Of a stretch of 64,000 nucleotides of DNA, positions 19,066 to 56,193 are shown in pieces. The position numbers and the translations under genes were made by a program. This stretch comes from Nitrospina sp. LS_NOB. Its GTDB lineage: Bacteria > Nitrospinota > Nitrospinia > Nitrospinales > VA-1. Every line of letters begins with the position of its first letter. The stretch's first letter is position 1. The notes under the pieces are model-generated. The model did not search any database. It was not told where the DNA came from and was given only the letters and a program-made list of their open reading frames with translations. The DNA is taken from the NCBI GenBank assembly GCA_001542995.1, contig LFLA01000024.1, positions 68,499 through 132,498 of the forward strand, given 5' to 3'.

Positions 19066-19092
19066 GGTCCTTTTATGTGTTTTTAAATTTTT

Positions 19093-35676: not shown

Positions 35677-35776
35677 TTGACAATTCATGGACTTTTTATA
35701 AAACTTCAATAGTATAGAGGGCGATATGGGCATTCTGCCCATCGATATTGATTCTGTTCTGGAATTGTTCTACAAT
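35677..35776 (+). promoter_or_regulatory. Shared promoter/leader element, copy 1
   Basis: TTGACA, then 51 nt on, GGGCATTCTGCCC..TATTGATTCTGTTCTGGAATTGTTCTACAAT; 45/49 identical to 53532-53580. Confidence 0.65.
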
Positions 35777-35941
35777 GCCCCATTCAACTTTATTTCAGGT
35801 TTTTCTACGGGTATCCAGAGAGGTGTCTTTTATTCCATTTTTTGTGGAAGTTTCTCTTGATGCGACGCACGCTATTATAGGGTTTAGAAAAGCCGATTTT
35901 TCGCCGTAATGTATTTATAATCTTAATCCGACAAGGCATAA

Positions 35942-36295
35942 ATGACCGATAAAACAAAACCCAAGCAAGAAGTTCACTTCAAGTACCAGAAAACTCATGG
36001 GTATAGAAACTTTCATGTAGATGGGATTTACGGGGGCCTCACTGGAAAGGGTTTCTTGCATATGGATTTCTTTGTTGAGAAACACCCTATACCGGATGAA
36101 GAGACCTACTCACTAGAGCAGAAGGGTTTCGAGCTCTCAGACAAAAAAAGCTCAGAATCAGTTATTAGGGAGGTTGAAGGAGGGCTTATGATGGATTATA
36201 ACATGATGAAGGCGATGAGAGCGTGGTTGGATGACAAGATCCAGCAATTTGAGAATACTTTTGTAGCCCCAAAGCAACCTACACAAAAACATTGA
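35942..36295 (+). CDS. DUF3467-like protein (candidate chaperone)
   Basis: YRNFHVDGIYGGLT..G.LHMDFFVE...VIREVEGGLMM.....MRAWL pattern. Confidence 0.7.
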   Translation: MTDKTKPKQEVHFKYQKTHGYRNFHVDGIYGGLTGKGFLHMDFFVEKHPIPDEETYSLEQKGFELSDKKSSESVIREVEGGLMMDYNMMKAMRAWLDDKIQQFENTFVAPKQPTQKH

Positions 36296-36302
36296 GGAAA
36301 CC

Positions 36303-36695
36303 ATGCCCCCAGCAACTCTCAATGACATAAACCTTGATGATGCTCAGCGTTGGAATGCCTTGCTACAACAAGCGGGGATAGCTGTGACCGCTCCCATCCC
36401 TGAAGTGGACAGTTTTTCACAAAGAGGCTTCCTTCTCCGAATTGAGGATTTGGGAGAAGGTATCATGCTAAGTGACCCCATAATGGTCACTGTAGAGTTT
36501 TCGCAGGACGGGCCCTCTGGGTATTACAAGCCTCTAAGCCTTCATACATTCAGTGATACCATTCCTGAAATAGAGCAAGAACTCAAGGGTGAAATCCTTG
36601 ACCTTTGGGACTGGCTTAAAGAAGCCGATGAATCAGAGTTAGGTCAAGAACCATTAGAATGGAAATCCCACCTTAAAGACATTATCTTGGCTTAA
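36303..36695 (+). CDS. HicB-like (partial RNase H fold) candidate antitoxin
   Basis: PIMVTVE..G...Y..L.L.TFSDT..E....L..EI.DLW..L..ELG pattern. Confidence 0.6.
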   Translation: MPPATLNDINLDDAQRWNALLQQAGIAVTAPIPEVDSFSQRGFLLRIEDLGEGIMLSDPIMVTVEFSQDGPSGYYKPLSLHTFSDTIPEIEQELKGEILDLWDWLKEADESELGQEPLEWKSHLKDIILA

Positions 36696-36701
36696 CGTAA
36701 T

Positions 36702-37019
36702 ATGGCGGAAAAGATAAAGCGTTTCCTTGAGTCAGAAATAAATTCTAAAATCAAGTCAAAGGTAAGCAAAGTCAGAATCCCCGGAAGAAAAAAGAGGGGT
36801 CCGCACCCCACATTTGCTATTTCACTAAATGGCAAGATAGTAGGGAAGGTTAAGGTTCCTAACGATCACGACAGGTTATTTTCCGAAGGGAAATCAGAAA
36901 AAATTGCCCAAGCCTTAAAGTTAACTTTCGAAGAATATAATAACCTGATCGAATGTTCCCTCACAGGCTCAGGATATTTTGAAATCCTTGCAACCAGGCT
37001 AAACCCTGCCCCAGCTTGA
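36702..37019 (+). CDS. HicA-like candidate toxin
   Basis: Basic protein; GPH..F....K..GKV.VP.H......IAQALKL...EY..LIECSL pattern. Confidence 0.6.
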   Translation: MAEKIKRFLESEINSKIKSKVSKVRIPGRKKRGPHPTFAISLNGKIVGKVKVPNDHDRLFSEGKSEKIAQALKLTFEEYNNLIECSLTGSGYFEILATRLNPAPA

Positions 37020-37150
37020 CAGATCCACTCCCCGTCGTGTAGCTCTCCTTTTATTTTCGTGCGTATAGTTAAGGTTACTAGATATTGTGGTTTTGCAAAT
37101 TGCCGCCCTCTGCGATAATATCCAGATTAAATTAATTGTGCTTGAGGATT

Positions 37151-37927
37151 ATGAAAATCATCGTTTGTGTTAAACAGGTTTTGGATACTGCCGCTCAAAT
37201 CCAGATTGAAAATGGAAGAGTGGTTTCCCCCGGGAGTTCCCGCATCATCAACCCCTACGATGAGTTTGCGATTGAAGAAGCGGTGCGCATTAAAGAAAAA
37301 AAACCGGATACCGAAATCACACTTTTATCGCTGGGGCCCGAGGGAGTTAAGGATTCCATTAAAAAAGCTCTTGCTATGGGTGCGGACAAGGCCGTGCATT
37401 TGATGGATGCTAAATTTGAAGGACTGGATTCTTATGCATTGGCCCAAGTTTTGGCCTGCGCGATTGAAAAAATTCCCTACGATTTAATTCTTTGCGGCAG
37501 GCAGGCTGTGGATGTGGATCGGGCCCAGACCGGCCCGGCCCTGGCTACTTTTCTCGATATTCCCTTCGTCACTGTGGTGACGGGGATTGAGTTCTCCGAC
37601 GACTTTCAAAATGCTAAAATCACCCGGCAGGTTGAAGGCGGCAGCGAAGTTCGCGAATTGCCGCTTCCCTTGCTGTTGACTTGCCAGAAGGGCCTGAATG
37701 AACCTCGCCTGCCCTCCCTCAAAGGCATAATGGCCGCTAAGAAAAAAGAAGTTTTAACGCTATCAGCCCTTGATGTTGAGACGCTTGACATTGGTGACAA
37801 CCGGGTGATTGAGGAAAATCTCTGCTTGCCCCCGGAGCGAAAAAAGGGAATAATTCTGCAAGGATCTGAAGAAGAAATAAGCGGCGAGCTGGTTCGCTTG
37901 CTGCGTGAAGAGGAAAAAATCATTTAA
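37151..37927 (+). CDS. etfB: Electron transfer flavoprotein beta subunit
   Basis: MKIIVCVKQV, INPYDEFAIEEA, CGRQAVD and NEPRLPSLKGIM motifs. Confidence 0.95.
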   Translation: MKIIVCVKQVLDTAAQIQIENGRVVSPGSSRIINPYDEFAIEEAVRIKEKKPDTEITLLSLGPEGVKDSIKKALAMGADKAVHLMDAKFEGLDSYALAQVLACAIEKIPYDLILCGRQAVDVDRAQTGPALATFLDIPFVTVVTGIEFSDDFQNAKITRQVEGGSEVRELPLPLLLTCQKGLNEPRLPSLKGIMAAKKKEVLTLSALDVETLDIGDNRVIEENLCLPPERKKGIILQGSEEEISGELVRLLREEEKII

Positions 37928-37944
37928 ATAAGAAAATATACCCT

Positions 37945-38130
37945 ATGAATGAAACTCCTGCCCCCGCGGACAGCGGACTAAAAAGCCTGGCACAGAAATA
38001 TAAAGGTCAGATTGGCATTGGTCTCCTGGTTCTATATGTTTTTCTTCTCGGACTGGGAACCATTGGCGAAATCTGGGAGGTTGAATGGATATTGGATCTT
38101 CCCCTGTTTCGCCCACCCGGAAAATCTTGA
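37945..38130 (+). CDS. Small single-pass membrane protein between etfB and etfA
   Basis: 61 aa; hydrophobic helix IGIGLLVLYVFLLGLGTIG. Confidence 0.55.
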   Translation: MNETPAPADSGLKSLAQKYKGQIGIGLLVLYVFLLGLGTIGEIWEVEWILDLPLFRPPGKS

Positions 38131-38254
38131 CCGTACTGTGATTTTAAATCCCATTAAATGCGCTAATTGGGCTATGCCCAAAATGGCAATTTTTATTTTT
38201 GTTCTGGCGCCTTGATGCCGGCCACCCTATTTATTTTTTGTTCCGGAGTTTTTT

Positions 38255-39238
38255 GTGAGTGTTGACTGTGTCCTAGCTGTGGTGATCGAGCATGACCAAG
38301 GTAAAACCAAACCAGTATCGTTAGAGGTTCTAAGCGCCGCCCGGAAACTGGCGGACCAGATCTCTGGAAAGGTCGTTGCCTTTTGCTTTTGCCATGCAGC
38401 AGATTTTGAGGTTGATCTTTTTATTCAACACGGCGCCGATGAAGTGCGTGTTCTCACCCATCCCGATCTGCAGCACTATGTCCATGAAAATTATGCTTTC
38501 GCTTTATTGCGGCAGCTGGAAAAATCTGAATTCGATTATCTATTGTTACCGGCGACCAATAACGGCAAGGAATTGTCAGCGGTTCTTTCGGCCCGGTTAG
38601 GGGTAGGGGTGGCGACAGACTGTATTTCCCTTTCTGTCAGCGGTGGTGAGGTGGAGGCGGTGCGGCCGGTTTCAGCTGGGAAGGCCCATTCCACTGTCCG
38701 CTTCAAGGGCAAGAAACCGCATATACTATCCCTCAGGCCGAATGTGTTTCGCGATCCTCCGCTTTCCCGGCAGGGTGACATTATTCAGGAAGAAATCGAA
38801 TTGCCGGAATTTTCCCAACGAGTCCGGGAACTGGTCAAACAGGTGGGTTCCCAATTAGATGTCACCGAAGCCCGGATTGTGGTATCGGGTGGACTGGGGA
38901 TGCAGGGGCCGGAAAATTTTAAACTGCTGGAAGACCTGGCAGAAGTCCTGGGTGGGGCGGTAGGGGCCAGTCGGCCTGTGGTGGATAATGGCTGGCGCGA
39001 CTATTCTAACCAGGTGGGCCAGACCGGGCGAACCGTTTCTCCGGACCTTTATTTCGCTTGTGGTATTTCTGGGGCGGTACAGCATTTAGCCGGCATGTCT
39101 TCGTCACGATGCATTGTGGCCATTAATTCTGACCCCAACGCCGCTATTTTTTCCGTTGCCGATTATGGGTTAGTTGGAGATGTGCTTAAGATCGTTCCTA
39201 TTCTTACCCGGGAATTTAAAAAGATTCTTGCTTCCTGA
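38255..39238 (+). CDS. etfA: Electron transfer flavoprotein alpha subunit
   Basis: LDVTEARIVVSGG, AVGASRP, QVGQTG, LYFACGISGAVQHLAGM and AINSDPNAAIF motifs. Confidence 0.95.
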   Translation: MSVDCVLAVVIEHDQGKTKPVSLEVLSAARKLADQISGKVVAFCFCHAADFEVDLFIQHGADEVRVLTHPDLQHYVHENYAFALLRQLEKSEFDYLLLPATNNGKELSAVLSARLGVGVATDCISLSVSGGEVEAVRPVSAGKAHSTVRFKGKKPHILSLRPNVFRDPPLSRQGDIIQEEIELPEFSQRVRELVKQVGSQLDVTEARIVVSGGLGMQGPENFKLLEDLAEVLGGAVGASRPVVDNGWRDYSNQVGQTGRTVSPDLYFACGISGAVQHLAGMSSSRCIVAINSDPNAAIFSVADYGLVGDVLKIVPILTREFKKILAS

Positions 39239-39253
39239 ACGCCATTTTGCCCC

Positions 39254-39898
39254 ATGCAAAGGCCTCCCATGCAAGGTACCATTGGACATATTTTGCAGGA
39301 CCCCCGGCTGGCTCTCGCTAGTGAGCTTTCTAGCCTCGTGGAGTCCCGGATTCAGCACTATCTGGATCTTTTGGTCAAGTGGAACCACAAAATAAATCTC
39401 ACCGCAGAAAAAGACCCTGAAAGCATCCTCAAAAGACATATATTCGACTCTCTGCAGTATTGCCGGGCACTCAAACCCGATTTTCGGACCATGGATATAG
39501 GCAGTGGTGCTGGTTTTCCCGGGATTCCTTTAAAAATCATTTTTCCTGAAATGCCATTGGTTTTGGTGGAAAGCCAGCGAAAACGCTGTAGTTTTCTGGA
39601 AACGGTCATCCGGGAGCTTGGGCTGGATCGGGCTGAAGTGATCAATGCCAGGGCGGAAGACATTCCGGCCCAACAGGAAGGTCAATTCGATGCAGTCGTA
39701 TTTCGCGCTGTATCAGGTGTAAACCCGTGTCTGGCCCTGGGTGAGAGGTTTTTGGTTGCTGGAGGCAGGTTGGTCCTGAAAAAGCCCCCCGACGAAACCC
39801 TGCCAGAATCCGAGCTTTCTTTAAAAGACGAGATCACCATAACCAGCTATCAGGGACTGGTCTCAAGCCTCTTGATTTATGAAAAATGTTCCACGTGA
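39254..39898 (+). CDS. rsmG: 16S rRNA G527 methyltransferase
   Basis: KWNHKINLT, HIFDSL, DIGSGAGFPGIPL and RAE..RAV motifs. Confidence 0.93.
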   Translation: MQRPPMQGTIGHILQDPRLALASELSSLVESRIQHYLDLLVKWNHKINLTAEKDPESILKRHIFDSLQYCRALKPDFRTMDIGSGAGFPGIPLKIIFPEMPLVLVESQRKRCSFLETVIRELGLDRAEVINARAEDIPAQQEGQFDAVVFRAVSGVNPCLALGERFLVAGGRLVLKKPPDETLPESELSLKDEITITSYQGLVSSLLIYEKCST

Positions 39899-39902
39899 AA
39901 CA
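39887..39902. promoter_or_regulatory. parS: parS site 1
   Basis: TGTTCCACGTGAAACA, one mismatch to consensus TGTTTCACGTGAAACA. Confidence 0.88.
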
Positions 39903-40073
39903 GTGGCGAACCGCCACAGGTGTGATAACTTACCTAAACATTCGCCCGCAGGGGTATAAATGGTAATAGCTTCACCATGCGGGCAAACGTTGTTTCGGTC
40001 TCACGCTTGGTCAAGCCGAGAAAAACTGTTGCTCACCAGAAAGAGCTATTGCTAGTCGGCCCCACGCAGTGGA

Positions 40074-40089
40074 TGTTTCACGTGGAACA
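40074..40089. promoter_or_regulatory. parS: parS site 2
   Basis: TGTTTCACGTGGAACA, upstream of parA. Confidence 0.88.
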
Positions 40090-40276
40090 CCCGCTCCAGC
40101 GGGAGGAAACTAATCAAGGGCTCAGCCAAAAAAAAGATTGTTTTCAGAGAGACTATTGCCAGTTGGGTCCAGCGTTTCGCTGGTGAAACAATGGTCCAAG
40201 AATCATTTATATATTGGCAAAGAATTGAAAATATGGTAATTTGAAGCGGTTGTCCGAACTGTTCTCAAGAGGTTTC

Positions 40277-41071
40277 ATGGGCAAAATCATAAGCATCGCA
40301 AATCAAAAAGGCGGGGTGGGCAAAACCACCACAGCCATCAATCTTTCCGCCTCTATAGCCCTTTCGGGCAAAAAAGTGTTGTTGATCGATATTGATCCCC
40401 AAGGCAACGCCTCCAGTGGATTGGGGATTGATGCCAATTCCCGGGGGGTTTATGAACTCTTGATGGGTGAGGCGAGTCAAAAGGAAGTCATTTGCTCCAC
40501 TGAAATTGAAACGCTGAAAATCATTCCTTCGAGGGTGGATCTTACCGGCGCTGAAATCGAGTTGGTATCCAGAGAAGCCCGGGAAAAAGTTTTGAAGACT
40601 GCGCTCAACGGTGTGCGCGAGGAGTTTGAGTTTGTGGTTATAGATTGTCCACCTTCTTTAGGTCTTTTGACTTTGAATGCCTTGGCTGTTTCCAACTCGG
40701 TGCTGATTCCCATGCAATGCGAATATTATGCTCTTCAGGGTTTGAGCCATTTGCTGAAAACTTTAAAGCTGATAAAAAAATCCATCAACCCGGATTTAAA
40801 AGTGGAAGGTATCTTGTTAACGATGTTTGATAGCAGAACCCTACTGGCGTCACAGGTGAAGGACCAGGTGCAAAAATATTTCAGCGACTTCCTGCTAAAA
40901 ACAATCATTCCAAGGAATGTGCGGTTGAGCGAGGCGCCCAGTCATGGCAAGCCGATCATGCTGTATGCCGGTCGCTCACGCGGCGCGGATTCTTATGTTG
41001 AACTGGCTAAAGAAATTATTTCCCGATCTAAAACCGATGAACGAACCTCACTTCCAGGCTCGGCGGCATGA
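40277..41071 (+). CDS. parA: Chromosome partitioning ATPase
   Basis: NQKGGVGKTT, DIDPQGNA, DCPPSLG and IPRNVRLSEAPSHG motifs. Confidence 0.96.
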   Translation: MGKIISIANQKGGVGKTTTAINLSASIALSGKKVLLIDIDPQGNASSGLGIDANSRGVYELLMGEASQKEVICSTEIETLKIIPSRVDLTGAEIELVSREAREKVLKTALNGVREEFEFVVIDCPPSLGLLTLNALAVSNSVLIPMQCEYYALQGLSHLLKTLKLIKKSINPDLKVEGILLTMFDSRTLLASQVKDQVQKYFSDFLLKTIIPRNVRLSEAPSHGKPIMLYAGRSRGADSYVELAKEIISRSKTDERTSLPGSAA

Positions 41072-41940
41072 ACCGAAAAGCATTAGGCAAAGGCATTAAC
41101 GCATTGATCCCGGACTTCGAAATGGGAGTTCCTGAGTCCGTCGAAAGAGGAACGAGCCTGGGAACGGAACTACTGATTGATGAAATTTCACCGAACCGGT
41201 TTCAACCGAGAAAATATTTCGATGATGACAAGCTGGAAGAACTGGTAACGTCCATTCGTGAAAATGGAATTCTGCAACCGGTGATTGTGCAAAAAGCCGA
41301 AACCGGTTATGAGTTGGTGGTGGGTGAAAGACGATGGCGGGCATCAAAAAAAGCAGGACTGAAAAAAATTCCCGCATTGATTCGCGAAGTCAGCGACAAT
41401 CAGGCTCTGGAATTGGCGATCGTTGAAAATATTCATCGTCAGGATCTCAACCCCATAGAAGAGGCGGAAGCTTATGCCCGCCTTTCCGATGAGTTTGCCC
41501 TGACTCAGGAAATGATCGCTAAAAAGGTAGGTAAAAGCCGGGCTACGGTTGCCAACATTTTGCGCCTTCTCAAGCTGTCCAGAAATATCAGGGAAGATTT
41601 AATTTCCGGCAGACTTTCCATGGGCCACGCCCGGGCTCTCCTGGGGCTGGACAATGCCGGACAAATGCAAGCTCTGCGTAAAGAAATTTTCAAACAGGAT
41701 CTTACGGTACGGCAAACAGAAAGCCGGGTGAACAGGTTAAAACAACCGGCGCTGACAAAACTCGTCCCTGCCAGTAAAAAAAATATTTTTATCAGGGACT
41801 TGGAAAAGGAGTTGGAGCGCAAGCTGGGGACCAAAGTTGAGATTAATCCAAGGAAAAAAGGTGGCAAACTGGTGGTGACTTATTACTCGGATGACGATCT
41901 GGATCGCATCCAGGAATTGATTGGTCAACAAAAACATTAA
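41068..41940 (+). CDS. parB: Chromosome partitioning protein ParB
   Basis: LGKGINALI, QPRKYF, GERRWRA and ENIHRQDLNPIEEA motifs. Confidence 0.96.
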   Translation: MNRKALGKGINALIPDFEMGVPESVERGTSLGTELLIDEISPNRFQPRKYFDDDKLEELVTSIRENGILQPVIVQKAETGYELVVGERRWRASKKAGLKKIPALIREVSDNQALELAIVENIHRQDLNPIEEAEAYARLSDEFALTQEMIAKKVGKSRATVANILRLLKLSRNIREDLISGRLSMGHARALLGLDNAGQMQALRKEIFKQDLTVRQTESRVNRLKQPALTKLVPASKKNIFIRDLEKELERKLGTKVEINPRKKGGKLVVTYYSDDDLDRIQELIGQQKH

Positions 41941-41978
41941 AACGGGACGGGTGGTTTCTCATGTGGAGAGAGAAAATT

Positions 41979-42386
41979 ATGAAAAAAGAAGACACGCAAA
42001 TTAAAGCCTATATGAGCGAAGACACGGTTTTTAACGGATCGTTATATTTTGACGGGACTGTTCGCATTGATGGCAAGTTTGAAGGCGCGGTCCACACCGA
42101 TGATACGCTGGTTGTCGGGGAGACGGGACATCTTGTCGCGGAAATTTCTGCGGGGACGGTTGTCTGCATGGGCCGTATAGAGGGAACCATCATTGCTTCC
42201 AAAAAGGTTGAGATTCATGCGAACAGCCGGGTGGTGGGAAATATTAAGTCCCCTGCTTTGTACATTGAGCTGGGAGGGGTATTGGACGGTTCCTGCGATA
42301 TGACGGGAAAAGAAAATAAAATCATACCTCTGGTAAAAACCGAAGAAAAAGAAAAGAAAGTTTCCGGCCAGTCCGCGAAAGGGTAA
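41979..42386 (+). CDS. Bactofilin (polymer-forming cytoskeletal protein)
   Basis: Beta-helix repeats VRIDGKFEG..VVGETG..VVGNI..GVLDGSC. Confidence 0.9.
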   Translation: MKKEDTQIKAYMSEDTVFNGSLYFDGTVRIDGKFEGAVHTDDTLVVGETGHLVAEISAGTVVCMGRIEGTIIASKKVEIHANSRVVGNIKSPALYIELGGVLDGSCDMTGKENKIIPLVKTEEKEKKVSGQSAKG

Positions 42387-42460
42387 CTGAAAATCGGTCC
42401 TGATTTTCCGCACGAAGAGTTGAGTTTTTCAAAACCGGAGACTAAAATAAATATTCAATC

Positions 42461-43171
42461 ATGGCTGTTGTGCAACCGGGGTCAGTGGAAGCGGGCAATT
42501 TATTTGTAGTGAGCACCCCGATTGGCAACTTGGGTGATGTGACCCATCGCGCTATAGAAACCCTTGATGCGGTTTCCCTGATAGCGGCTGAAGATACCCG
42601 CCGGACAAGAATTTTGTTGAACAGGTACCAAATCCAAACGCCCCTTTCCAGTTACAACAGCTTTAACAAAATTAAGAAAGGCAGGGAGTTTGTCGAGCGG
42701 CTCAAAAAAGGCGATGACCTTGCCCTGGTTTCAGATGCCGGAACCCCCGGAATTTCCGATCCGCATTATCATTTGGTGAACAGCGCAATCGAAGAGGGGG
42801 TTTCTATTTATTCCATTCCTGGTCCATCGGCACTGCTGGCGGCATTGACTGTTTCCGGTTTGCCCATGGACCGGTTTGTTTTTGAGGGGTTCCTGCCCCG
42901 TAAAAAAGGGCGCACGACGATGCTGGAGAATCTGGCGAATGAAAAACGCACCGTAGTTTTATTTGAATCGCCGAACCGCATTCAAAAAACGCTGCAAGAC
43001 CTTTACCGGTTTTTTGGAGATCGCAAGGTGGCTGTCGCCCGCGAGTTGACTAAAATGTATGAGGAAGTGATTCGAGGAAACCTGAAAGAACTTTCCACTC
43101 TGACACGGACCTGGAAAGGCGAAATCACCGTGGTGATCGCCGGCTCAGACGAGAAAAAGAGGAAAAGTTAG
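42461..43171 (+). CDS. rsmI: 16S rRNA C1402 2'-O-methyltransferase
   Basis: TPIGNLGD, AAEDTR, VSDAGTPGISDP and ARELTKMYEE motifs. Confidence 0.95.
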   Translation: MAVVQPGSVEAGNLFVVSTPIGNLGDVTHRAIETLDAVSLIAAEDTRRTRILLNRYQIQTPLSSYNSFNKIKKGREFVERLKKGDDLALVSDAGTPGISDPHYHLVNSAIEEGVSIYSIPGPSALLAALTVSGLPMDRFVFEGFLPRKKGRTTMLENLANEKRTVVLFESPNRIQKTLQDLYRFFGDRKVAVARELTKMYEEVIRGNLKELSTLTRTWKGEITVVIAGSDEKKRKS

Positions 43172-43278
43172 TAGTATTTTCTATTAAAAAGTTTTTCATC
43201 ATCCCGTTTAACAATGGGGAAGATATCCAGGATATGCGGAACGTCCGATTTATTTCATAAAGAAAAAGGAGTAGGAGT

Positions 43279-43566
43279 ATGAATGATTTTTGGTATAGAT
43301 ATGTTGATGAACATCTAACAAGGGCTTATGGTGGTGATATGACCATGGAAACCAGATTAAATGCTAGGATTAAAGTTCTCGAAGAAAACCCTAAGCAATC
43401 AGGCACAGCATCCCATGATAGATTTGAACTTTATGCGAAATGCAGGACAGTTGGCGCATATATAGAAGAGATCAAAAAAGGCACGGAAGAAAATGGAAGG
43501 AACTATGGATCGCCCGATCTGAAATGGGATAGTGAACGCAATTTCATTGAATTTGAAATACCTTAA
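43279..43566 (+). CDS. Hypothetical protein (NPK..RFELY..DLKWD motif)
   Basis: Strong AAGGAG RBS; AT-richer than the flanking genes. Confidence 0.6.
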   Translation: MNDFWYRYVDEHLTRAYGGDMTMETRLNARIKVLEENPKQSGTASHDRFELYAKCRTVGAYIEEIKKGTEENGRNYGSPDLKWDSERNFIEFEIP

Positions 43567-43582
43567 ACCAGGAAATTCCGAA

Positions 43583-44956: not shown

Positions 44957-45026
44957 GGCCGGCGAGCCGCCGGGGGCAGAAAACATCCGTGCCAGGCATG
45001 AAGGCGGGGATACCACAGGTGCGAAT

Positions 45027-45140: not shown

Positions 45141-45195
45141 AAAACCGGAAGAATCCGCTTGAATCCGCTAGCCGGTTTCGTTTAAAGTAATAAGT

Positions 45196-45726
45196 ATGCT
45201 TTCCGAATATACAAGTAATAGCCAGGGCTGTGTGCGCTTGATGACTTTTCGAATGAACAGGAAAATTTCAGGTTTGTGGAGGTGGATATTTTTGGGGATC
45301 ATTATTCCGCTCTCTTTGCTTCCGTTCATTCATTATCATCCTGAAACCGAGCATCTCCATGATGAACGCGCAGGCGCTCATCAGCATCAGGGGCGCTATC
45401 ATTCCGCGACTTTGGAAGCTTATGCCCATCTTGTTAGCGGGCATTTTTCCAATTCTGAACTCGATGACCATTTTCACCATTCGCATTCTTCCCGGGACGA
45501 GGGTGAAAACGATTCCGATTATTTTGTCCTGGCTAAAAACGCCAAGTCCTTCAAGCAGGGGCTGGTCTTTACGCCGGATTCCTCACACTTTGAATTTTCC
45601 GCTCCCCTGGTTTTTGTTCCTATAGGCTCTGAAACCGTTTCATTCCAATTACGTTTTAGAAGAAGTCCAAATTCTTCGCGTGCCCCCCCCTTTGTTGTTT
45701 CTTTAAACCCATCACCACAAATTTAG
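45196..45726 (+). CDS. His-rich exported protein upstream of czcC
   Basis: Hydrophobic segment, then HYHPETEHLHDE..HQHQGRYH..HFHHSH; ends in the RAPP motif. Start codon uncertain. Confidence 0.6.
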   Translation: MLSEYTSNSQGCVRLMTFRMNRKISGLWRWIFLGIIIPLSLLPFIHYHPETEHLHDERAGAHQHQGRYHSATLEAYAHLVSGHFSNSELDDHFHHSHSSRDEGENDSDYFVLAKNAKSFKQGLVFTPDSSHFEFSAPLVFVPIGSETVSFQLRFRRSPNSSRAPPFVVSLNPSPQI

Positions 45727-45822
45727 TTCCTTTTAAATTTCCGGCGTCATGAAGCCTGTTGCGTAATGGTTTGCGTCTGGGCTTGATTTTTATGTGCCGG
45801 AAAAGCATCGAGGATAAAGCAG

Positions 45823-47124
45823 ATGAAACGCGTGTTAAAAACCCTTGGGGTTTGTCTGGCTCTAAGCTTTTCTATACCAGTCATCTCCTGGGCAGAAGAA
45901 CAACAACAGAAAACCTTAACCGGGACCATTACTCTGACCCAGGTCTTACCGGTGGTCTTGTTGCAAAACCCTGACCTGAAGGCTTTTTCGTATGAGGTTC
46001 GTGCTCGGGAAGCCGAGACCCTACAGGCCGGGTTGGTCTCTAACCCTCAACTGCATGTGCAGGTGGAAAACGTAGCGGGATCGGGAAACTTTAACGGCTT
46101 CGACCAATCCGAAACCACGGTTCAATTGAGCCAGCGACTGGAGTTGGGAAGTAAGCGCGATCTTAGGAGAAGTTCCGCCAATTTATCGAAACAAATTGCC
46201 GGATGGGATTATGAAGTCCAGCGCCTCGAAGTATTGGCCCGTGTTTCGAAAGCTTTCACTCATGTGCTGAAAGCCCAGCAAAAAGTTTCTTTAACAGCCG
46301 AAGGAGTGCAACTGGCGAGAAAATTTTTGAATGCGGTCTCTGAGAGAGTCACAGCGGGCAAGGTTGCGGCGATAGAAAAAATCAAGGCGCAGGTGGCTCT
46401 TGCCAATATGCGCATGGGAAAAGAACGGGCCCAACAGAAACTGGAAAATGCCCGCAGGAAATTGTCCGTACTGTGGGGGAACGCCGAACCCCGGTTCGAC
46501 TCGGCTCAGGGAGATTTTTTCGCAATTTCCGACAAGCCGCCAGCAACAGAACTGTCCGCCAATCTGCGCCTCTCTAGATCGGCAACGGCTCTGGCCCATC
46601 GGCAGGCGGAGCTGGATGTAGAGAATTCCAAAGCGATTCCTGATTTGACACTCAGCGGTGGTTACCGTCGGTTGGAACAAACGGATGATAACGCTTTGGT
46701 GTTTGGTGTAACCGTTCCCTTGAACTGGTTCAACCGCAATCAGGGAGGCATTGCCAAAGCCCGTCACAGGCTGTCCAAAGCTCAGGAAGAAAAAAAGGCA
46801 GAGGCATTGCGAATACAGGAAGCTCTGTTGAAGGCCCACAGCGAAGTGTCTTTTTCTCACGCAAAAGTAATTTCGATCAAAGCCGAGGTTTTGCCCGGAG
46901 CTAAAAAAGCGTTCGATGCCATCAGCGAAGGTTATCGGTTCGGCAAATTCGGTTTGTTGGATGTGCTGGATAGCCAGAAAACATTTTTTCAGGTTCAAAG
47001 CCAATACCTTGATGCGCTGGCCGAGTATCACAACGCCGTTGTCGATGTGAAACGCCTGACGGGGGTGGATCCATTTACCCAAAACAAAACTCTGGAAAAC
47101 GGGAAAGGAGAAAACCAGCCATGA
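45823..47124 (+). CDS. czcC: Heavy-metal efflux outer membrane factor (TolC family)
   Basis: Signal peptide; NP.L..SQRLELG.KR, PDLTLSGG, VPLNWFNRNQG and GKFGLLDVLDSQ motifs. Confidence 0.9.
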   Translation: MKRVLKTLGVCLALSFSIPVISWAEEQQQKTLTGTITLTQVLPVVLLQNPDLKAFSYEVRAREAETLQAGLVSNPQLHVQVENVAGSGNFNGFDQSETTVQLSQRLELGSKRDLRRSSANLSKQIAGWDYEVQRLEVLARVSKAFTHVLKAQQKVSLTAEGVQLARKFLNAVSERVTAGKVAAIEKIKAQVALANMRMGKERAQQKLENARRKLSVLWGNAEPRFDSAQGDFFAISDKPPATELSANLRLSRSATALAHRQAELDVENSKAIPDLTLSGGYRRLEQTDDNALVFGVTVPLNWFNRNQGGIAKARHRLSKAQEEKKAEALRIQEALLKAHSEVSFSHAKVISIKAEVLPGAKKAFDAISEGYRFGKFGLLDVLDSQKTFFQVQSQYLDALAEYHNAVVDVKRLTGVDPFTQNKTLENGKGENQP

Positions 47125-48866
47125 ACGGAAAGATTTCTTTCGGCGCGATTGCCATTCTGGTTGTAGGAGCGGTTCTGGCCTGGGGCATTTTAAATATGGA
47201 CAAGCCAAAACCTGGACTTGATGAGCCGGGCTCATCGCTTGCTCAAGGAAAGGAGCTCTCCGTTCAAAGGGGAAAACACGGGGGCTGGTTGTTTGTCGAA
47301 CAGGATTTTCAGGTGGAGGTGAAAATTTTTGAAGACGGTATTCCGCCGCAATTCAGGATCTATATAACTTCAAGCGAACAAGTGAACCTTGACGAGATTA
47401 ATTTGAATATCGTTTTAAAGAGGTTGGATAGGACCGACACCATTGGTTTCAAACCTTCGGGAGATTATTTGCTGGGAGACCAGGTGGTTGCCGAGCCGCA
47501 TTCTTTTGAAATGATTGTCAACGCAAAATGGAAAGGGCAAAACTTCCAGTGGAAACTTTCTCAAATTGAAGGCCGGGCAGAATTTTCCCCAGAGGCGATT
47601 CAAAACGCGGGACTTGTTTTTAAAAAAGCCGGTTCGGGAAAACTAGTGACAAAGATACGTTTGCCGGGCGTGATCGGACTCAACGAAGAAAAAGTGGTCC
47701 ACATTGTTCCAAGGGTTGATGGGGTGGTTAAAAAAGTATTTAAAGATTTGGGAGATCAGGTTTCCCGTGGCGAGGCCATCGCCATCCTGGAAAGCCGGGA
47801 ACTGGCCGACGCGAAGATCGATTACCTGACCAACACCAAGCAGGCTGACATGGCTGGGGCAGACCTGGACCGGGAAATACAGGTCTTCGAAAACACCCAG
47901 CGCATGCTGGATCTGCTTGAGAAGAATTTGGACCCGGAGGAAATATACCGTCAGCTTAAAGACCTGGTGATCGGAAAAAGCCGCGAACTGCTCATTCCCG
48001 TCTCTGCCAAATTGAGACTGGCAAAGTCCATTCACCTGCGTGAAAAGGGATTGCTGGAAAAGGGCATCTCATCCGAATCGGAATATTTAGTCGCTTTGGA
48101 AGATTACAAAAGCACCGAGGCTCGTTATATCGCTTTGCGTGAAAGAATCTCCTACGATGGCGCGTGGTCTCTCCGGCAAAAGAAAAAAACTCTGGAGATC
48201 GATCAGCTTAATCTGAAAACCGCCAACCAAAAACTGCTGGCATTGGGACTGACCCCGGAGGAAGTGGATCATTTGCTGGAACAGGATGAACAGCATTTCA
48301 CCCGGTATGAACTGCGCGCTACTTTAGACGGTACGGTGATCCAGAAACATCTAACCACCGGAGAGGCGGTCAAAAAGGACGATGACATCTTTCTCCTGGC
48401 CGATCTTTCAGAGGTCTGGGTGAATTTTGCCATTCCGGAAAAGGAACTCAAAAAAGTTCACCTCGGGCAAAAGGTGCTTTTTGAGGGAGGACTCAATACG
48501 GCGAAACTGTCTTATCTCAGTTCGATCATTGATGAAAAAACCCGAACGGTGACAGGGCGTGTAGTGATTCCCAATAAGAAGCGCGATTTGCGTCCCGGTG
48601 GTTATGTCACGGTGGAACTGGTTCTTGGTGAACGAAAGGTTCCGGTGGCGGTGGAACCGGATGCCATTCAAAGTTTCCGCGACTGGTCGGTGGTCTTTGT
48701 CAAGTACGGATCTCAACTGGAAGCACGGCCTTTGGAGCTTGGAGAAAACGATGGCAACCGGGTGGAAGTTCTACAGGGTTTGAAAGCCGGGGAACAGTAT
48801 GTGGCAAAAAACAGTTATGCGGTGAAGGCCGAGATTGAAAAGTCTGGCGCCACCCACAGTCACTAG
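47121..48866 (+). CDS. czcB: Heavy-metal efflux periplasmic adaptor
   Basis: IVPRVDG, ESRELADAK, LADLSEVWV and TRTV..LRPG motifs; long helical hairpin. Confidence 0.88.
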   Translation: MNGKISFGAIAILVVGAVLAWGILNMDKPKPGLDEPGSSLAQGKELSVQRGKHGGWLFVEQDFQVEVKIFEDGIPPQFRIYITSSEQVNLDEINLNIVLKRLDRTDTIGFKPSGDYLLGDQVVAEPHSFEMIVNAKWKGQNFQWKLSQIEGRAEFSPEAIQNAGLVFKKAGSGKLVTKIRLPGVIGLNEEKVVHIVPRVDGVVKKVFKDLGDQVSRGEAIAILESRELADAKIDYLTNTKQADMAGADLDREIQVFENTQRMLDLLEKNLDPEEIYRQLKDLVIGKSRELLIPVSAKLRLAKSIHLREKGLLEKGISSESEYLVALEDYKSTEARYIALRERISYDGAWSLRQKKKTLEIDQLNLKTANQKLLALGLTPEEVDHLLEQDEQHFTRYELRATLDGTVIQKHLTTGEAVKKDDDIFLLADLSEVWVNFAIPEKELKKVHLGQKVLFEGGLNTAKLSYLSSIIDEKTRTVTGRVVIPNKKRDLRPGGYVTVELVLGERKVPVAVEPDAIQSFRDWSVVFVKYGSQLEARPLELGENDGNRVEVLQGLKAGEQYVAKNSYAVKAEIEKSGATHSH

Positions 48867-48904
48867 GGAAAAGCAAATCCCCCCGACCCCTGTGGTATTT
48901 AACA

Positions 48905-49205
48905 TCAGCCTTCATGCCCCAAAGGGGTACTTCGTAGAAGGAGAGTTTTGCATAAGTCGAAAAATCGAAGAATCAAGATTCTTCACTACGTTCAGAATGA
49001 CAATGCAATCTCGTTCAGAATGCCAATACTGGGCCATTTTGTCATCCTCGAGGAGCCGAAGGCGACGAAGGATCTCGCCTTGTACTAATCTGGGGATTCT
49101 TCACTACGTTCAGAATGACAATGCGATCTCGTTCAGCATGATAATACTGGGCCATTTTGTCATTCTGAGGAACAATATCACGAGGAGCTGGGGTGATTTA
49201 CAACC
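48905..49205. repeat. REP/MITE composite between czcB and czcA
   Basis: Family A hairpin, left end GAGAGTTTTGCATAAGTCG, and GATTCTTCACTACGTTCAGAATGACA / GTCATCCTCGAGG..GGATCT units shared with 56232-56797. Confidence 0.8.
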
Positions 49206-49237
49206 TCATATGTAATATGTGAATCAGGGGAAAAAAT

Positions 49238-52200
49238 ATGTTAGAAAAAATTATCGCATTTTCCATTCGGCAAAGATTTTTTGTGATTGCAGGGGCTTTG
49301 GCCCTCATCGCGCTGGGTGGATATAATTTTACAATCCTTCCCATTGATGCGGTTCCCGATGTCACCAATATTCAGGTGCAGATCAATACCGAAGCCCCGG
49401 GCTTCACCCCGTTGGAAGTTGAACAGCGCATCACCTTCCCGATTGAAACCACCCTGGCGGGCATGCCCCGATTGAAGCGTACCCGTTCTCTATCCCGCTA
49501 CGGCCTTTCCCAGGTCACGGTGATTTTTGAGGACGGAACAGATATTTATTTTGCCCGGCAATTGATCAATTCCAAAATTCAGGAAGTAAAAAGTCACCTG
49601 CCTGAAAATGTGGAACCGGTCATGGGTCCGATCGCGACGGGACTGGGGGAAATCTTCATGTGGTCGGTAGAAGCCGAAGACCAAAATCGAAAACCCTATT
49701 CACTCACAGAGTTGAGAACCATTCAGGACTGGATCATCAAGCCGCAACTGAAGAACATCCCCGGAGTGACAGAGGTCAACAGCCTTGGCGGTTATGTTAA
49801 AAACTTCCAGGTGTCGCCCGATCCGCAAAAGCTGATCGCCTATGGTTTTTCGTTCAGGGATGTCATCGAAGCGTTGAGCAGAAATAACGAAAACATTGGT
49901 GCGGGTTATATTGAGCACAGCGGCCAGCAATACCTTGTGCGAACTCCCGGTCAGGTATCGGGCTTGGAAGATATAAAAAATATCGTGCTTGGCTCGCATC
50001 AGGGCGTTCCTATTTATATCAAGGATGTGGCAGGTGTAGACCTGGGTAAAGAGCTCAGGACAGGAGCCGCCACTAAGGACGGTGCGGAAATGGTGCTGGG
50101 TACCGTCTTCATGCTCAAGGGAGAAAACAGTAGGACGGTTTCATTAAGGGTTGCCGAGAAAATGAAATTGATCAACCAGACTCTGCCCGAAGGCGTGGTG
50201 GCACGAACCGTTTATGACCGCACCCATCTGGTTAACGCCACTCTCAAAACCGTCCGCGATAATCTGCTGGAAGGAGCGCTTCTGGTTGTCGCCGTTTTAT
50301 TTTTGTTGCTGGGCAATTTCCGCGCGGCGGTGATCACGGCGCTGGTGATTCCCCTTTCCATGTTGTTTGCAGTAACGGGGATGGTGAGCAACCGGGTCAG
50401 CGGTAACCTGTTGAGCCTGGGCGCCATTGATTTTGGCATCATTGTTGATGGCGCGGTGATCATTGTGGAAAACTGTAGCCGCTGTCTTACCGAGAAACAA
50501 AAACGGTTGGGGCGAATACTGAATCAGCAGGAACGCTTTGACATTGTGCAAAGTTCTGCCTGCGAAGTTTCCCGCCCCAGCATCTTCGGGGTGTTCATCA
50601 TCATGATCGTTTATCTGCCTATACTCACTTTGACTGGAATCGAAGGCAAAATGTTTCAGCCTATGGCTTTCACCGTGTTGATGGCTCTTGCCGGAGCATT
50701 GATTCTTTCGATCACTTTTGTTCCGGCGATGATGGCTCAGTTTGCGTCTTCTTCCATCTCTGAAAAGGAGAGCATCATTTTAAAAGGTGCGGGCCGACTT
50801 TATTCCTTCCTGCTGGACGTCACCGCTAAAAATCGCGCCTCGGTGATCGCCTTTGCCGGGGTTCTGGTTGTGCTCAGTATTTTATTGAGCCAGAAATTGG
50901 GCAGCGAGTTTCTCCCGACTCTGGATGAAGGGGATTTCGCCGTTCACGCCCTCCGGGTTCCAGGCACCAGTATTTCCCAGGCTGTTTCCATGCAGGACAC
51001 GCTGGAGAAAAAAATAAAGGAACTGCCGGAAGTGGATTATGTTTTTGCGAAGATCGGCACGGCGGACATCGCTACCGACCCGATGCCACCCAGTGTGGCC
51101 GATGTATTTATAATCGTGAAACCCCGTTCTGAATGGAGTGACCCCACAAGGGAAAAATCAGCTCTGGTGCGGGATCTGGAAAAGAAGCTGGCCGAAGTCC
51201 CCGGAAACAAATACGAAATCACCCAGCCGATTGAGATGCGGTTTAATGAATTGATTTCGGGCGTGCGCAGTGATGTGGCGGTTAAAATTTTTGGCGATGA
51301 TCTGGACAAGCTGCTGGTTCTGGCCGATGAGGTCGAACATGTCCTGGCCGATATTCCCGGTGCGTCCGATGTTAAAGTTGAACAGGTGACCGGACTCCCG
51401 GTTCTGACGGTGGAGATGGACCGTCCTGCAATGGCCCGGCTGGGAATCAACGCCGCCGATGTTCAGGAAGTCGTCCAAATCGCCATTGGAGGTAAAAAGA
51501 CCGGGCAGGTTTTTGAAGGAGACCAACGGTCTGACCTCATCGTGCGTTTGCCGGAAGACATCCGCGAAAAGATGGACTTGCTCAAGGAGCTTCCCATTCC
51601 ATTAGCTCAGGACGGAGAAGAAGTACACTCGGTGATGAGTTCGCGTTTCCCCAAATTCATACCACTTGGCACGATTGCGGAATTTAAAATTATTAAAGGA
51701 CCGAATCAGATCAGCCGCGAAAACGCCAAGCGCCGTGTGGTGGTGACCGCCAATGTAAGAGGCCGCGACCTGGGTTCTTTTGTTGCAGAGGCGCAAAACG
51801 CTTTGCAGCTTAAAGCAGAGCCGGGTTATTGGATCGAGTGGGGCGGTCAGTTCGAGCACCTGATTTCCGCAACGCAAAGATTGTGGGTGGTGATTCCCCT
51901 GACCCTTGTGCTGATTTACTTGTTACTGTTTGCGGCGTTCGGTTCCAACGCCAATGCTCTGCTGGTTTTTACCGGAGTCCCTCTGGCGCTCACTGGCGGG
52001 TTTCTCTCCCTGTGGCTGCGGGGAATTCCCTTATCGATTTCGGCGGCGGTGGGTTTTATAGCTCTGTCGGGAGTCGCGGTGCTGAACGGCATGGTGATGA
52101 TTTCATTCATCGGCAACCTCCGCGACCAAGGGGTTCCCTTGGATGATGCCATTCGACAAGGATCGCTCACGCGGCTCCGTCCGGTTTTGATGACGGCACT

Positions 52201-52414
52201 GGTCGCTTCGTTGGGGTTCATCCCCATGGCTCTGGCAACGGGAACCGGTGCCGAAGTGCAACGTCCGCTGGCAACGGTGGTGATCGGCGGCATCCTCTCC
52301 TCGACCGCATTAACTTTAGTTGTCCTTCCCGCTCTCTACCGCTACTTCCATGAGGCGCCCGCCTCAAGGGAGAGGAAGATAAAAGTCCCTTCTCCCCTGG
52401 AGGGAGAAGGTTAG
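49238..52414 (+). CDS. czcA: CzcA/CusA-family heavy-metal RND permease
   Basis: IDAVPDVTNIQVQI, DFGIIVDGAVIIVEN, FLPTLDEG, GVAVLNG and RLRPVLMTA motifs. Confidence 0.95.
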   Translation: MLEKIIAFSIRQRFFVIAGALALIALGGYNFTILPIDAVPDVTNIQVQINTEAPGFTPLEVEQRITFPIETTLAGMPRLKRTRSLSRYGLSQVTVIFEDGTDIYFARQLINSKIQEVKSHLPENVEPVMGPIATGLGEIFMWSVEAEDQNRKPYSLTELRTIQDWIIKPQLKNIPGVTEVNSLGGYVKNFQVSPDPQKLIAYGFSFRDVIEALSRNNENIGAGYIEHSGQQYLVRTPGQVSGLEDIKNIVLGSHQGVPIYIKDVAGVDLGKELRTGAATKDGAEMVLGTVFMLKGENSRTVSLRVAEKMKLINQTLPEGVVARTVYDRTHLVNATLKTVRDNLLEGALLVVAVLFLLLGNFRAAVITALVIPLSMLFAVTGMVSNRVSGNLLSLGAIDFGIIVDGAVIIVENCSRCLTEKQKRLGRILNQQERFDIVQSSACEVSRPSIFGVFIIMIVYLPILTLTGIEGKMFQPMAFTVLMALAGALILSITFVPAMMAQFASSSISEKESIILKGAGRLYSFLLDVTAKNRASVIAFAGVLVVLSILLSQKLGSEFLPTLDEGDFAVHALRVPGTSISQAVSMQDTLEKKIKELPEVDYVFAKIGTADIATDPMPPSVADVFIIVKPRSEWSDPTREKSALVRDLEKKLAEVPGNKYEITQPIEMRFNELISGVRSDVAVKIFGDDLDKLLVLADEVEHVLADIPGASDVKVEQVTGLPVLTVEMDRPAMARLGINAADVQEVVQIAIGGKKTGQVFEGDQRSDLIVRLPEDIREKMDLLKELPIPLAQDGEEVHSVMSSRFPKFIPLGTIAEFKIIKGPNQISRENAKRRVVVTANVRGRDLGSFVAEAQNALQLKAEPGYWIEWGGQFEHLISATQRLWVVIPLTLVLIYLLLFAAFGSNANALLVFTGVPLALTGGFLSLWLRGIPLSISAAVGFIALSGVAVLNGMVMISFIGNLRDQGVPLDDAIRQGSLTRLRPVLMTALVASLGFIPMALATGTGAEVQRPLATVVIGGILSSTALTLVVLPALYRYFHEAPASRERKIKVPSPLEGEG

Positions 52415-52599
52415 GATGAGGGGGATATCACAGCCTTCGGCGGTCGCGCCAGCGTCACCGCCACATTGCCACCGGCGGCTACGCCGGCGGGTTCCGATAA
52501 TACTATAACCTATTGATTTTATGTATTTTATATCTATCAGGTTGGCGGGTTCTGTGTTATATTGAGTCCTCTTTCAACATACTCGAATAGGAAAACTTC

Positions 52600-53334
52600 A
52601 TGAATAAAGACCAGATCGCTATTTATCTCAACGAGCACCCCGAGTTTTTCAATGAATACCCGGAACTGTTGAAAAAAGTAAAAGAGATTAAAGACGAAGA
52701 CCTTCCTATCGAGCCGATGACGACATTGAGTCTGGCGGACCGGATCATCAAGCGGGTTTACGACGATAAAGAGCATCTTGAAAGCAAATTGGAATGGTTG
52801 TTCGAAATTTCCCGCGCTAACGAAAAAATTCAGGATCACCTGTTCGAAATCGAAAGACTGGTGTTGACCAGCACCAATCTCGACCAAATGGTCCATCAAT
52901 TACAAAAAGAAATTCCCAACCGGTTTGGCATTCCCAATGTCAAGGTTTGTCTGGTGAAAGGCTCCGACCCTTGTATGGAAAACCGGTTGCGGCAACGCTA
53001 TAACGGCACCCTCGATGAAACGGTGAAATTCATTTGCCGGGAAACGGCTGATAGCTGGTTTCCAAACGGGCTCAAGCCCATCCTTCGCAGTGAGATTAAA
53101 GAATCGGAAATGTTCGCTAATGATGACAGCATTAAATCAGAAGCGTTGATTCCCATCATGGCGCAGGATGTCATGGTCGGGGCGATTGCCTTTGGCAGTC
53201 CCAACCCTTTTCATTTTCATGACGGACTCGGCACCGAGTTTCTCGAACGCATGGCCGACAAAGTTTCCATCTCCATCAACAATATCCTCCTCATCGACCA
53301 ACTCAAAGACCAGCTGGTAGTAAACCCAGCGTGA
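52600..53334 (+). CDS. DUF484 family (GAF-like) protein
   Basis: IAIYLNEHPEFF N-terminus; SEALIP..GAIAFGS..FHDGLGTEFL C-terminus. Confidence 0.85.
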   Translation: MNKDQIAIYLNEHPEFFNEYPELLKKVKEIKDEDLPIEPMTTLSLADRIIKRVYDDKEHLESKLEWLFEISRANEKIQDHLFEIERLVLTSTNLDQMVHQLQKEIPNRFGIPNVKVCLVKGSDPCMENRLRQRYNGTLDETVKFICRETADSWFPNGLKPILRSEIKESEMFANDDSIKSEALIPIMAQDVMVGAIAFGSPNPFHFHDGLGTEFLERMADKVSISINNILLIDQLKDQLVVNPA

Positions 53335-53480
53335 CGCTGGACTCAGTAAAAAAAAGACTGTTATAAATAGTGAATGGGGGAGGGGGGAATAGCGGATAAG
53401 TGAGTTGGAGAAGAAGGCGAAGGTGAGGTAATTTGACGTAGGAGTAAGCCAAAGCATTTCAATGCGAAAGCCGTTAAGTA

Positions 53481-53580
53481 TTGACAAATTAGAGGTTTAT
53501 TGTAGTATCTAGTCAGTTGATGAGGATATTTGGGCATTCTGCCCCTCAGTATTGATTCTATTCTGGAATTGTTCTACAAT
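53481..53580 (+). promoter_or_regulatory. Shared promoter/leader element, copy 2
   Basis: TTGACA (53481), TAGTAT (53503), and the 49-bp block at 53532-53580 matching 35728-35776. Confidence 0.65.
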
Positions 53581-55406: not shown

Positions 55407-55437
55407 CCGGGATAAGGGTTTAAGGAGGATTTAAGCC

Positions 55438-56153: not shown

Positions 56154-56193
56154 CTACCTGATAATGTGAGAAGCAAATTGCAAAGCACTCTTG

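Follow-up and report, generated by a model that had tools for sequence, protein, structure and literature searches.

A conserved promoter module, possibly carrying a shared operator, precedes unrelated accessory operons in Nitrospina sp. LS_NOB and its relatives

What could place almost the same short noncoding sequence in front of two small operons that lie 18 kb apart and encode unrelated proteins? The question is raised by a 64,000-nucleotide stretch of the genome of Nitrospina sp. LS_NOB (contig LFLA01000024.1, positions 68,499 to 132,498, assembly GCA_001542995.1), referred to below as the window and used for all coordinates unless stated otherwise. A first-pass annotation, made from the sequence alone, had noticed there a 49-bp element that starts with a potential GGGCA-TTC-TGCCC hairpin and had offered three readings of it: a shared cis-regulatory RNA or small RNA, a common operator that defines a toxin-antitoxin (TA) regulon, or a recombination site of a system that captures defense cassettes. 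The reading that we favor, with a probability of about 0.55, is that the element belongs to a portable promoter-operator module, copies of which head accessory operons unrelated to one another and probably answer to a single putative regulator.

The repetition itself was borne out by reading of the sequence and by a pattern search, both of which gave 45 identical positions out of 49 between 35728-35776 (copy A) and 53532-53580 (copy B), with mismatches at 35741, 35744, 35745, and 35756. The element pattern had exactly these two matches in the window, versus none in 100 shuffles, and a repeat finder lengthened the match to 53 nt at 91% identity. The reported geometry held as well: a TTGACA hexamer is found at 35677 in copy A and at 53481 in copy B, GGGCA begins 51 nt later in each case, and the first genes downstream begin at 35942 and 53759, which is 166 and 179 nt past the element, respectively. 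The downstream genes are indeed unrelated, with no BLASTP similarity between the proteins encoded at the two loci. Pairwise alignment revealed weaker homology outside the element, including ∼53% identity in the upstream 51 nt and a second common box, GG.GTGTCTTT, located ∼45 nt downstream. Between copies A and B, 30 of the 31 core positions and all 13 positions of the GC-rich dyad are identical, versus 36-53% identity in the flanks. In these alignments, the element appears as the conserved heart of a ∼155-nt promoter/5′ untranslated region (UTR) module with the following components:

35677..35682, forward strand: TTGACA box upstream of copy A, perhaps the -35 of a weak promoter (P1) or a binding site for a protein
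35728..35740, forward strand: GC dyad GGGCATTCTGCCC of copy A, immediately 5′ of the -35
35746..35776, forward strand: predicted core promoter P2 of copy A (-35 at 35748-35753, TTCTGGAA dyad at 35757-35764, -10 TACAAT at 35771-35776)
35809..35831, forward strand: 5′-UTR box GGGTATCCAGAGAGGTGTCTTTT of copy A, about +25 to +50 from the predicted transcription start
53481..53508, forward strand: P1-like site of copy B (TTGACA, 16-nt spacer, TAGTAT), scoring 10/12 in a promoter scan
53532..53544, forward strand: GC dyad GGGCATTCTGCCC of copy B
53550..53580, forward strand: predicted core promoter P2 of copy B (-35 TTGATT at 53552-53557, 17-nt spacer with TTCTGGAA, -10 TACAAT at 53575-53580)
53613..53634, forward strand: 5′-UTR box GGGCGTTCGGTGCGGTGTCTTT of copy B

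The 31-nt core has the makeup of a sigma-70-type promoter, namely a -35 hexamer TTGATT, a 17-nt spacer, and a -10 hexamer TACAAT, and a promoter scan called TTGATT-17-TACAAT in copies A and B as well as in the orthologue of copy A on contig L013 of a relative. Given such a promoter, transcription would start ∼7 nt past the element (near 35783-35785 in copy A and 53587-53589 in copy B), the mRNA would carry a 5′ UTR of ∼160-175 nt, and the TTGACA box would stand ∼100 nt upstream of the start. With a core of this -35/-10 type, the 49-bp “leader” probably lies for the most part outside the main transcript. The TTGACA box of copy A has a poor -10 partner (TAAAAC at 16 nt). The start of a contig from run X5 at 35793 was considered as a possible transcription start and rejected, because this run, which includes a contig of 123 kb, probably consists of DNA. 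In copy B, the sequence GCCGTTAAGTATTGA around the TTGACA box (53470-53484) recurs 71 nt later as GCCCCTCAGTATTGA around the -35 of the core (53541-53555), which hints that the tandem P1/P2 arrangement of this copy arose through internal duplication.

The module has been kept over considerable evolutionary distances. Orthologues of A1, the first gene of the operon behind copy A (operon A), are 62-86% identical at the protein level, and alignment of the upstream parts of their contigs revealed the element in front of A1 in every orthologue contig fetched. In the L013 contig, the operon lies in another neighborhood, between L,D-transpeptidase-like and argininosuccinate-lyase-like genes, and the element is retained there too. 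Across seven copies from four lineages, the invariant columns spell TATTG.TTCT.TT...GAA.T....TA...T, that is, the TTG of the -35; T1, A2, and T6 of the -10; and, in the spacer, TTCT.TT and the TTCnnGAA dyad. The TTG of the -35 and the three -10 bases are the positions that the sigma-70 holoenzyme reads most strictly. The -10 hexamer is TATAAT in two of the A orthologues (L004A and L012A). All seven copies have the TTC and GAA arms of the spacer dyad, which is palindromic over its full 8 bp in L013 (TTCATGAA) and in the L022 copy described below (TTCTAGAA). Between the window and L013, the A1 genes agree at 8 of 23 4-fold degenerate sites, which are thus saturated, and identity in the flanks is down to 37-41%, while 26 of the 31 core positions and 11 of the 13 dyad positions are unchanged; this difference indicates that the core is under purifying selection as a DNA sequence. 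Copy A is syntenic at the orthologous loci and vertically inherited, and the cargo linked to A1 differs between lineages. On the evidence of these alignments, the copies are demonstrably old and selectively maintained.

A profile of the ∼160-nt module (nhmmer) retrieved a third paralogue, copy C, from groundwater relatives (L022:10289-10392, E = 1e-5) and from the chromosome of a sister strain, OZ252246.1 (L030:12489-12607, E = 3e-8). Its layout repeats that of the other copies, starting with a TTGACA box, which in L022 lies 41 nt upstream, and continuing with GGGC-N5-GCCC, the core CTATTGTTTCTGTTCT(A/G)GAAATACG.TAT..T, and then a G.GTTTTCGGAGAG box; in alignments, the UTR boxes of copies A, B, and C conform to the pattern G....C...G.G....TTT. 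Copy C heads two genes with an 11-nt overlap, one for a 134-aa protein and one for a DUF2335 protein, and the whole unit splits etfB-(62 aa)-etfA in the relatives (L022:10190-11616; L030:12006-13990). At the corresponding site, the window has a 124-nt intergenic region alone (38131-38254), with no C insert. By BLASTP, the proteins of operons A, B, and C are mutually unrelated, and both B and C are present in some and absent from other close strains. The C insert of OZ252246.1 is decayed: both the 61-aa gene and C2 contain miniature inverted-repeat transposable elements (MITEs) with GAGACCTTTGCATAA ends, and the C-terminal remnant of an IS30-like transposase abuts the element.

The number of copies per genome was estimated indirectly, from contigs of the source sample, the sister chromosome, and public contig collections. 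In the Logan contigs of the source sponge sample (86 Mb), a 61-nt query matched two contigs at ≥80% identity, corresponding to copies A and B. A search of genome contigs for the exact 20-mer TTCTGGAATTGTTCTACAAT gave, besides two chance matches, one true match, in the complete 2.86-Mb chromosome OZ252246.1, where the profile search found one further, diverged copy. With two matching contigs in the 86-Mb assembly and a single 20-mer in the sister chromosome, the element is not a repetitive extragenic palindromic (REP)- or MITE-type multicopy repeat. In the Joint Genome Institute (JGI) metagenome collection, the 22-base invariant pattern was found in a single, already known Nitrospinota contig and in unrelated look-alikes on metagenome contigs, namely gut-bacterial promoters and one tRNA upstream region. 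Viral contigs yielded no match to the element other than one chance match in a coding sequence. Within the window, a profile search produced no additional weak copies at E < 1, and the degenerate spacer motif is no more frequent there than expected by chance. The likeness of the gut-bacterial promoter is striking: at an unrelated locus shared by five gut contigs (L014, L016, L017, L018, and L021), a post-terminator promoter, TATTGATTCTGTTGTAGAATTT(A/G)ATTATAAT, fits the element's invariant columns, down to TTCTGTT and GAATT within the spacer. This resemblance is probably due to convergence or chance.

The module thus stands before at least three unrelated small accessory operons (A, B, and C) in Nitrospinales from sponges and groundwater, and the proposal of a common regulator comes from the bases that it retains. 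Because conservation of the spacer (TTCT.TT and TTCnnGAA) and of the GC dyad goes further than RNA polymerase requires, we infer one trans-acting regulator, most simply a dimeric repressor bound between the -35 and the -10, that would control all copies; with such a regulator, the A, B, and C modules would be switched together. Repressor operators between the -35 and -10 hexamers are known from LacI-type synthetic placements, from the CI/Cro operators of phages, and from the autoregulation of type II antitoxins. The TTCnnGAA dyad within a 17-nt sigma-70 spacer resembles them, as do the small TA-like operons downstream, and a dimer bound at this dyad would block RNA polymerase. In classical type II TA systems, however, each antitoxin binds its own operator, whereas here three unrelated operons share one putative operator-like sequence, which implies that the regulator is encoded elsewhere. 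Candidates are the A1 protein and three proteins encoded nearby: the S24 repressor (296 aa, 33434-34324), a zinc-finger protein (144 aa, 34858-35292), and a sigma-region-4-like protein (114 aa, 35285-35629). The earlier idea of a common operator therefore survives in part: a conserved cis-regulatory promoter/operator that heads three unrelated operons fits the data, but “TA regulon” is an overstatement, as only operon B is TA-like, and weakly so. A more far-reaching version, which we regard as quite unlikely, is that the module is a lineage-specific plug-in promoter-operator that puts acquired TA- or defense-like modules under one master regulator, possibly that of a particle (gene transfer agent [GTA]-like) control region or A1. 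If so, scattered unrelated modules would fire together with particle production or phage attack, and a defense/TA regulon would be set by a portable cis element and not by adjacent regulator genes.

Several points weigh against a promoter-operator module under one regulator. Only seven copies were compared, and the conservation of their spacers may reflect promoter strength or DNA shape and not an operator. The -35 of copy C is weaker (TTGTTT-17-TATACT), falling under the threshold of a simple promoter scan, and the genome-wide copy number rests on the indirect estimate given above. What the sequences show is the conservation, the promoter anatomy, the paralogous copies, the variable inserts, and expression of A1, whereas the transcription start of P2, the operator function, and the existence and identity of the regulator are inferred. 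Finally, P1-like sites (TTGACA-16-TAGTAT in copy B and TTGACT-18-TAAAAT in L013) could transcribe through the element and could give it a minor RNA-level role. One specific regulator, LexA, was considered and rejected. The alphaproteobacterial/acidobacterial LexA box is a direct repeat, GTTC-N7-GTTC; this repeat is found only in copy A, its sister-strain orthologue (L001/OZ), and L012A, while it takes the form ATTC...GTTC in copy B and is missing from L004A, L013A, and both C copies.

Operon B, the more TA-like of the two operons of the window, is part of a strain-variable insert whose structure bears on the origin of the module:

53326..54888, forward strand: insert of 1.56 kb with copy B, between a DUF484 gene and a GNAT gene
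53759..54542, forward strand: operon B, with B1 (53759-54205, 148 aa, acidic) and B2 (54195-54542, 115 aa, basic) overlapping by 11 nt
54572..54667, forward strand: putative remnant of the N terminus of a ParA-type ATPase (MRTIAFINQRGGVGKG...), a 31-codon open reading frame (ORF) at the right end of the insert

The insert thus holds the module, B1, B2, and the ParA-like remnant. The ParA/Soj assignment was made from a Walker-A-like motif read by eye, and such a remnant suggests that the insert descends from a plasmid or another mobile element. The first-pass annotation had labeled both loci as TA systems, a label for which gene size, charge, and overlap are the grounds. For operon B, this label is plausible: B2 weakly matches HigB-2 from the Protein Data Bank (PDB; E = 0.075 over residues 18-95; E = 0.34 with a profile), although operon B has no match in Pfam, NCBIfam, or PADLOC, and the AlphaFold model of B2 is unusable (predicted local distance difference test [pLDDT] score of 49). 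For operon A, which gave no HicA or HicB signal, the label is unproven. The B1B2 pair, including the 11-nt overlap, is conserved in another organism (L028; 37% identity for B1 and 68% for B2) behind a different upstream region that lacks the element, so the promoter was joined to the B cargo within the clade. Insert B is retained in the X7/X8 strains; the X2 strain has a contig that aligns with the window over 52507-53325 and 54889-56195, the two parts being separated by 3,370 nt of other DNA. At the same DUF484/GNAT site, OZ252246.1 (L032:18910-20465) carries genes for an 86-aa protein, a 217-aa protein, and a DCD (dCTP-deaminase-like) protein behind a run of GGTGTATT repeats (L032 ∼19090-19180); a profile search found no copy of the element in this alternative cargo, which may be a defense module with its own iterons. 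This intergenic site is a hot spot.

With these loci in view, the competing explanations can be compared. Perhaps a good constitutive promoter simply moved with its cargo or was recombined onto it, with no common regulator, and its extra conservation reflects promoter strength (through effects of the spacer and an upstream element), recent ancestry, or short-tract gene conversion. Such passive reuse is possible, if unlikely; in its favor, promoter reuse is common, with more than 4,000 families of putative mobile promoters on record (PMC3575422), and the module is not accompanied by a regulator gene, the L013 contig having A1 and cargo only. However, promoter spacers are normally free to vary, and here both the spacer and the GC dyad have been kept across lineages with saturated synonymous sites, so that recent ancestry is insufficient, and gene conversion cannot account for conservation between orthologues in different genomes. 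An RNA-level role as the principal function of the element, with transcription starting at P1 and the 49 nt serving either as a 5′ leader that combines an mRNA-stabilizing stem-loop with a conserved single-stranded target for a small RNA or protein, or as a short separate RNA, is, in our estimate, improbable. It would agree with the P1 scores of 10/12 in copy B and L013, with the steady spacing between TTGAC and the dyad (51-52 nt in copy B and the orthologues of A; one helical turn less in the L022 copy C), and with the common box ∼25-50 nt past the predicted P2 start. The hairpin has fared less well: the GC dyad that the first-pass annotation had read as a stem is present in copies A and B, but the stem is not maintained in the relatives. 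The outer GGGC/GCCC is retained in five of the seven copies, but the stem is broken in L004A (TTCCC) and L012A (GGTCA..TTTCC), has lost an inner pair in L013A, and is weakened by T>C changes at 53538 and 53540 in copy B of the X7/X8 strains, in no case with compensation. Covariation in the alignment (0.156, against a mean of 0.159 in shuffled alignments) lends the stem no support. Furthermore, no Rfam family matched at the gathering threshold or at a permissive E ≤ 1, the predicted folds of the putative 5′ UTRs are not more stable than those of shuffled sequences (z-scores, -0.3 and -0.6), and alifold gave a weak consensus structure (-9.9 kcal/mol). P1 is also poor in copy A and L004A, its -35 in the OZ252246.1 copy C is replaced by the IS30-like remnant, and the invariant bases follow the promoter pattern TTG...TA...T. 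The shared cis-regulatory or small RNA of the earlier reading is therefore not supported. A pairing of the core of copy B with the ribosome-binding region of B1 (53556-53570 with 53719-53733) was taken as chance because copy A has no counterpart. Least credible of all is a leader peptide (MGILP..IDS..ELFYN), encoded across the element, through whose translation the genes behind it would be regulated. In copies A and B, L004A, and L013A, GGGC does follow a GAGG-like site and a codon ATG, TTG, or GTG, and the frames of copy B and L013A each have 19 codons and end in N-T-x. However, a 1-nt deletion breaks the frame in L012A, the L022 copy C lacks a start codon and reaches a stop after 11 codons, and the L030 copy C reaches one after 3 codons. 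All differences between copies A and B are nonsynonymous in this frame, yet 10-nt runs are invariant, so the constraint acts at the nucleotide level.

The third proposal, a recombination site of an integron attC/attI- or phage att-like system that delivers defense or TA modules, could draw on the fact that B and C are strain-variable intergenic inserts and that the DUF484/GNAT locus holds different cargo across strains. It is contradicted by the position of the element, which lies not at an edge but 155 nt inside the left end of insert B, 5′ of the cargo. Inserts A, B, and C have no end sequence in common, and the alternative cargo of OZ252246.1 at the same locus lacks the element, so the element belongs to the 5′ region of the cargo rather than to the insertion site. 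Copy A, moreover, is inherited vertically in synteny, and the dyad is not kept as a structure. A role in cassette recombination is accordingly very unlikely. Integron arrays (with their Pc promoter and attI/attC sites) likewise bring unrelated small accessory modules, TA pairs included, into intergenic sites. They differ from the present case, in which no attC-like structure is seen at the 3′ ends of the cassettes, each module has its own promoter copy, and the sites are scattered; among the Pfam matches compiled for the fetched loci there is no integrase or other recombinase gene, the window itself not having been scanned for one and just a few of its proteins having been run against Pfam. 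Whichever account of the promoter is adopted, the readings of the element as a hairpin RNA leader and as a cassette recombination site can be dropped.

As a phenomenon, promoter reuse has already been described, and the present case fits the putative mobile promoters of Matus-Garcia, Nijveen, and van Passel (2012), whose families are mostly pairs averaging ∼92% identity (PMC3575422). As in those families, near-identical noncoding DNA (53 nt, 91%) precedes nonhomologous genes, mostly as a pair, with no recognizable transposon attached and with related copies in other genomes of the clade. The published definition calls for ≥80% identity over ≥50 nt within a genome, which the element exceeds, and for nonparalogous adjacent coding sequences, which is the case here, as the A, B, and C proteins have no BLASTP similarity. 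That study sampled the interval between -150 and -50 from the start codon; the conserved block is farther upstream, at about -218 to -166 in copy A and -231 to -179 in copy B, and the weakly similar UTR box is the sole part inside that interval. Unlike typical putative mobile promoters, the copies described here are old (their flanks are saturated), have selectively retained the -35, spacer, and -10, and preferentially head strain-variable accessory modules. Small repeats that carry promoters, such as the Correia elements of Neisseria, ERIC, and REPIN, also are repeated intergenic DNA able to give neighboring genes promoter activity (PMC3575422). These, however, occur in tens to hundreds of copies per genome, are bounded by inverted repeats, and are often flanked by target duplications, whereas the element has two detectable copies per genome in the available data, a single orientation relative to its cargo, and no terminal repeats.

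Promoter reuse was cataloged statistically in 2012, and few cases have been dissected; here, the age of the copies, the selected bases, and the type of cargo (strain-variable, TA- or defense-like) can all be read from the sequence. If one regulator does bind the spacer dyad, the case would show how an uncultured nitrite oxidizer of sponges and groundwater wires foreign modules to a common switch, and it would provide a short operator for tracing that regulator. If there is no shared regulator, the module is a well-documented mobile promoter.

Operon A, which adjoins the S24-repressor, zinc-finger, and sigma-region-4 genes of the particle (GTA-like) gene cluster, comprises three genes:

35942..37019, forward strand: operon A
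35942-36295, forward strand: A1, 117 aa, member of a large uncharacterized family
36303-36695, forward strand: A2, 130 aa, acidic
36702-37019, forward strand: A3, 105 aa, basic

A1 is expressed, as its mRNA is present in a groundwater metatranscriptome (run X9, two 151-nt contigs within A1). Its family consists of proteins of ∼110-140 aa in 1,868 clusters at E ≤ 1e-3 (544 at 1e-10) with the motif R..HVDG..GG.TP.G...M.F..E..P.P ... REVE.G..MD......W, and matches DUF3467 of Pfam marginally, in 2 of 34 members at E ≤ 0.01. The predicted A1 model (pLDDT of 66) has six strands and a C-terminal helix, and a Foldseek search found no PDB fold match for it. Operon A was also considered as a HicAB system or a TA-chaperone system with a SecB-like A1; both were rejected, as there was no Pfam match and the A2 and A3 profiles did not retrieve HicB or HicA from the PDB. 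The genes that follow A1 in two relatives (L012:2110-2688 and L013:1814-2395) match the PADLOC candidate PDC-M32A (E = 3e-9 and 5e-3, respectively), and A1 may be the common first gene of variable defense-like operons. In the sister strain, A1 and A2 are intact, but 8 nt (GAGTCAGA) are inserted into A3 (L030:10760-11100, equivalent to 36702-37019) after window position 36728, so that the reading frame is lost beyond codon 13; this toxin-like gene is probably a pseudogene there. Farther along the same chromosome, L032:2029-8143 (opposite window positions ∼43172-43531) has ∼6 kb of extra DNA between the TP_methylase and Lyase_1 (argH-like) genes, where the window, by its ORF list, seemingly has a few hundred bases. 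This segment encodes an 867-aa protein, a DUF1828 protein, and an N6_N4 DNA methyltransferase and looks like a restriction-modification island.

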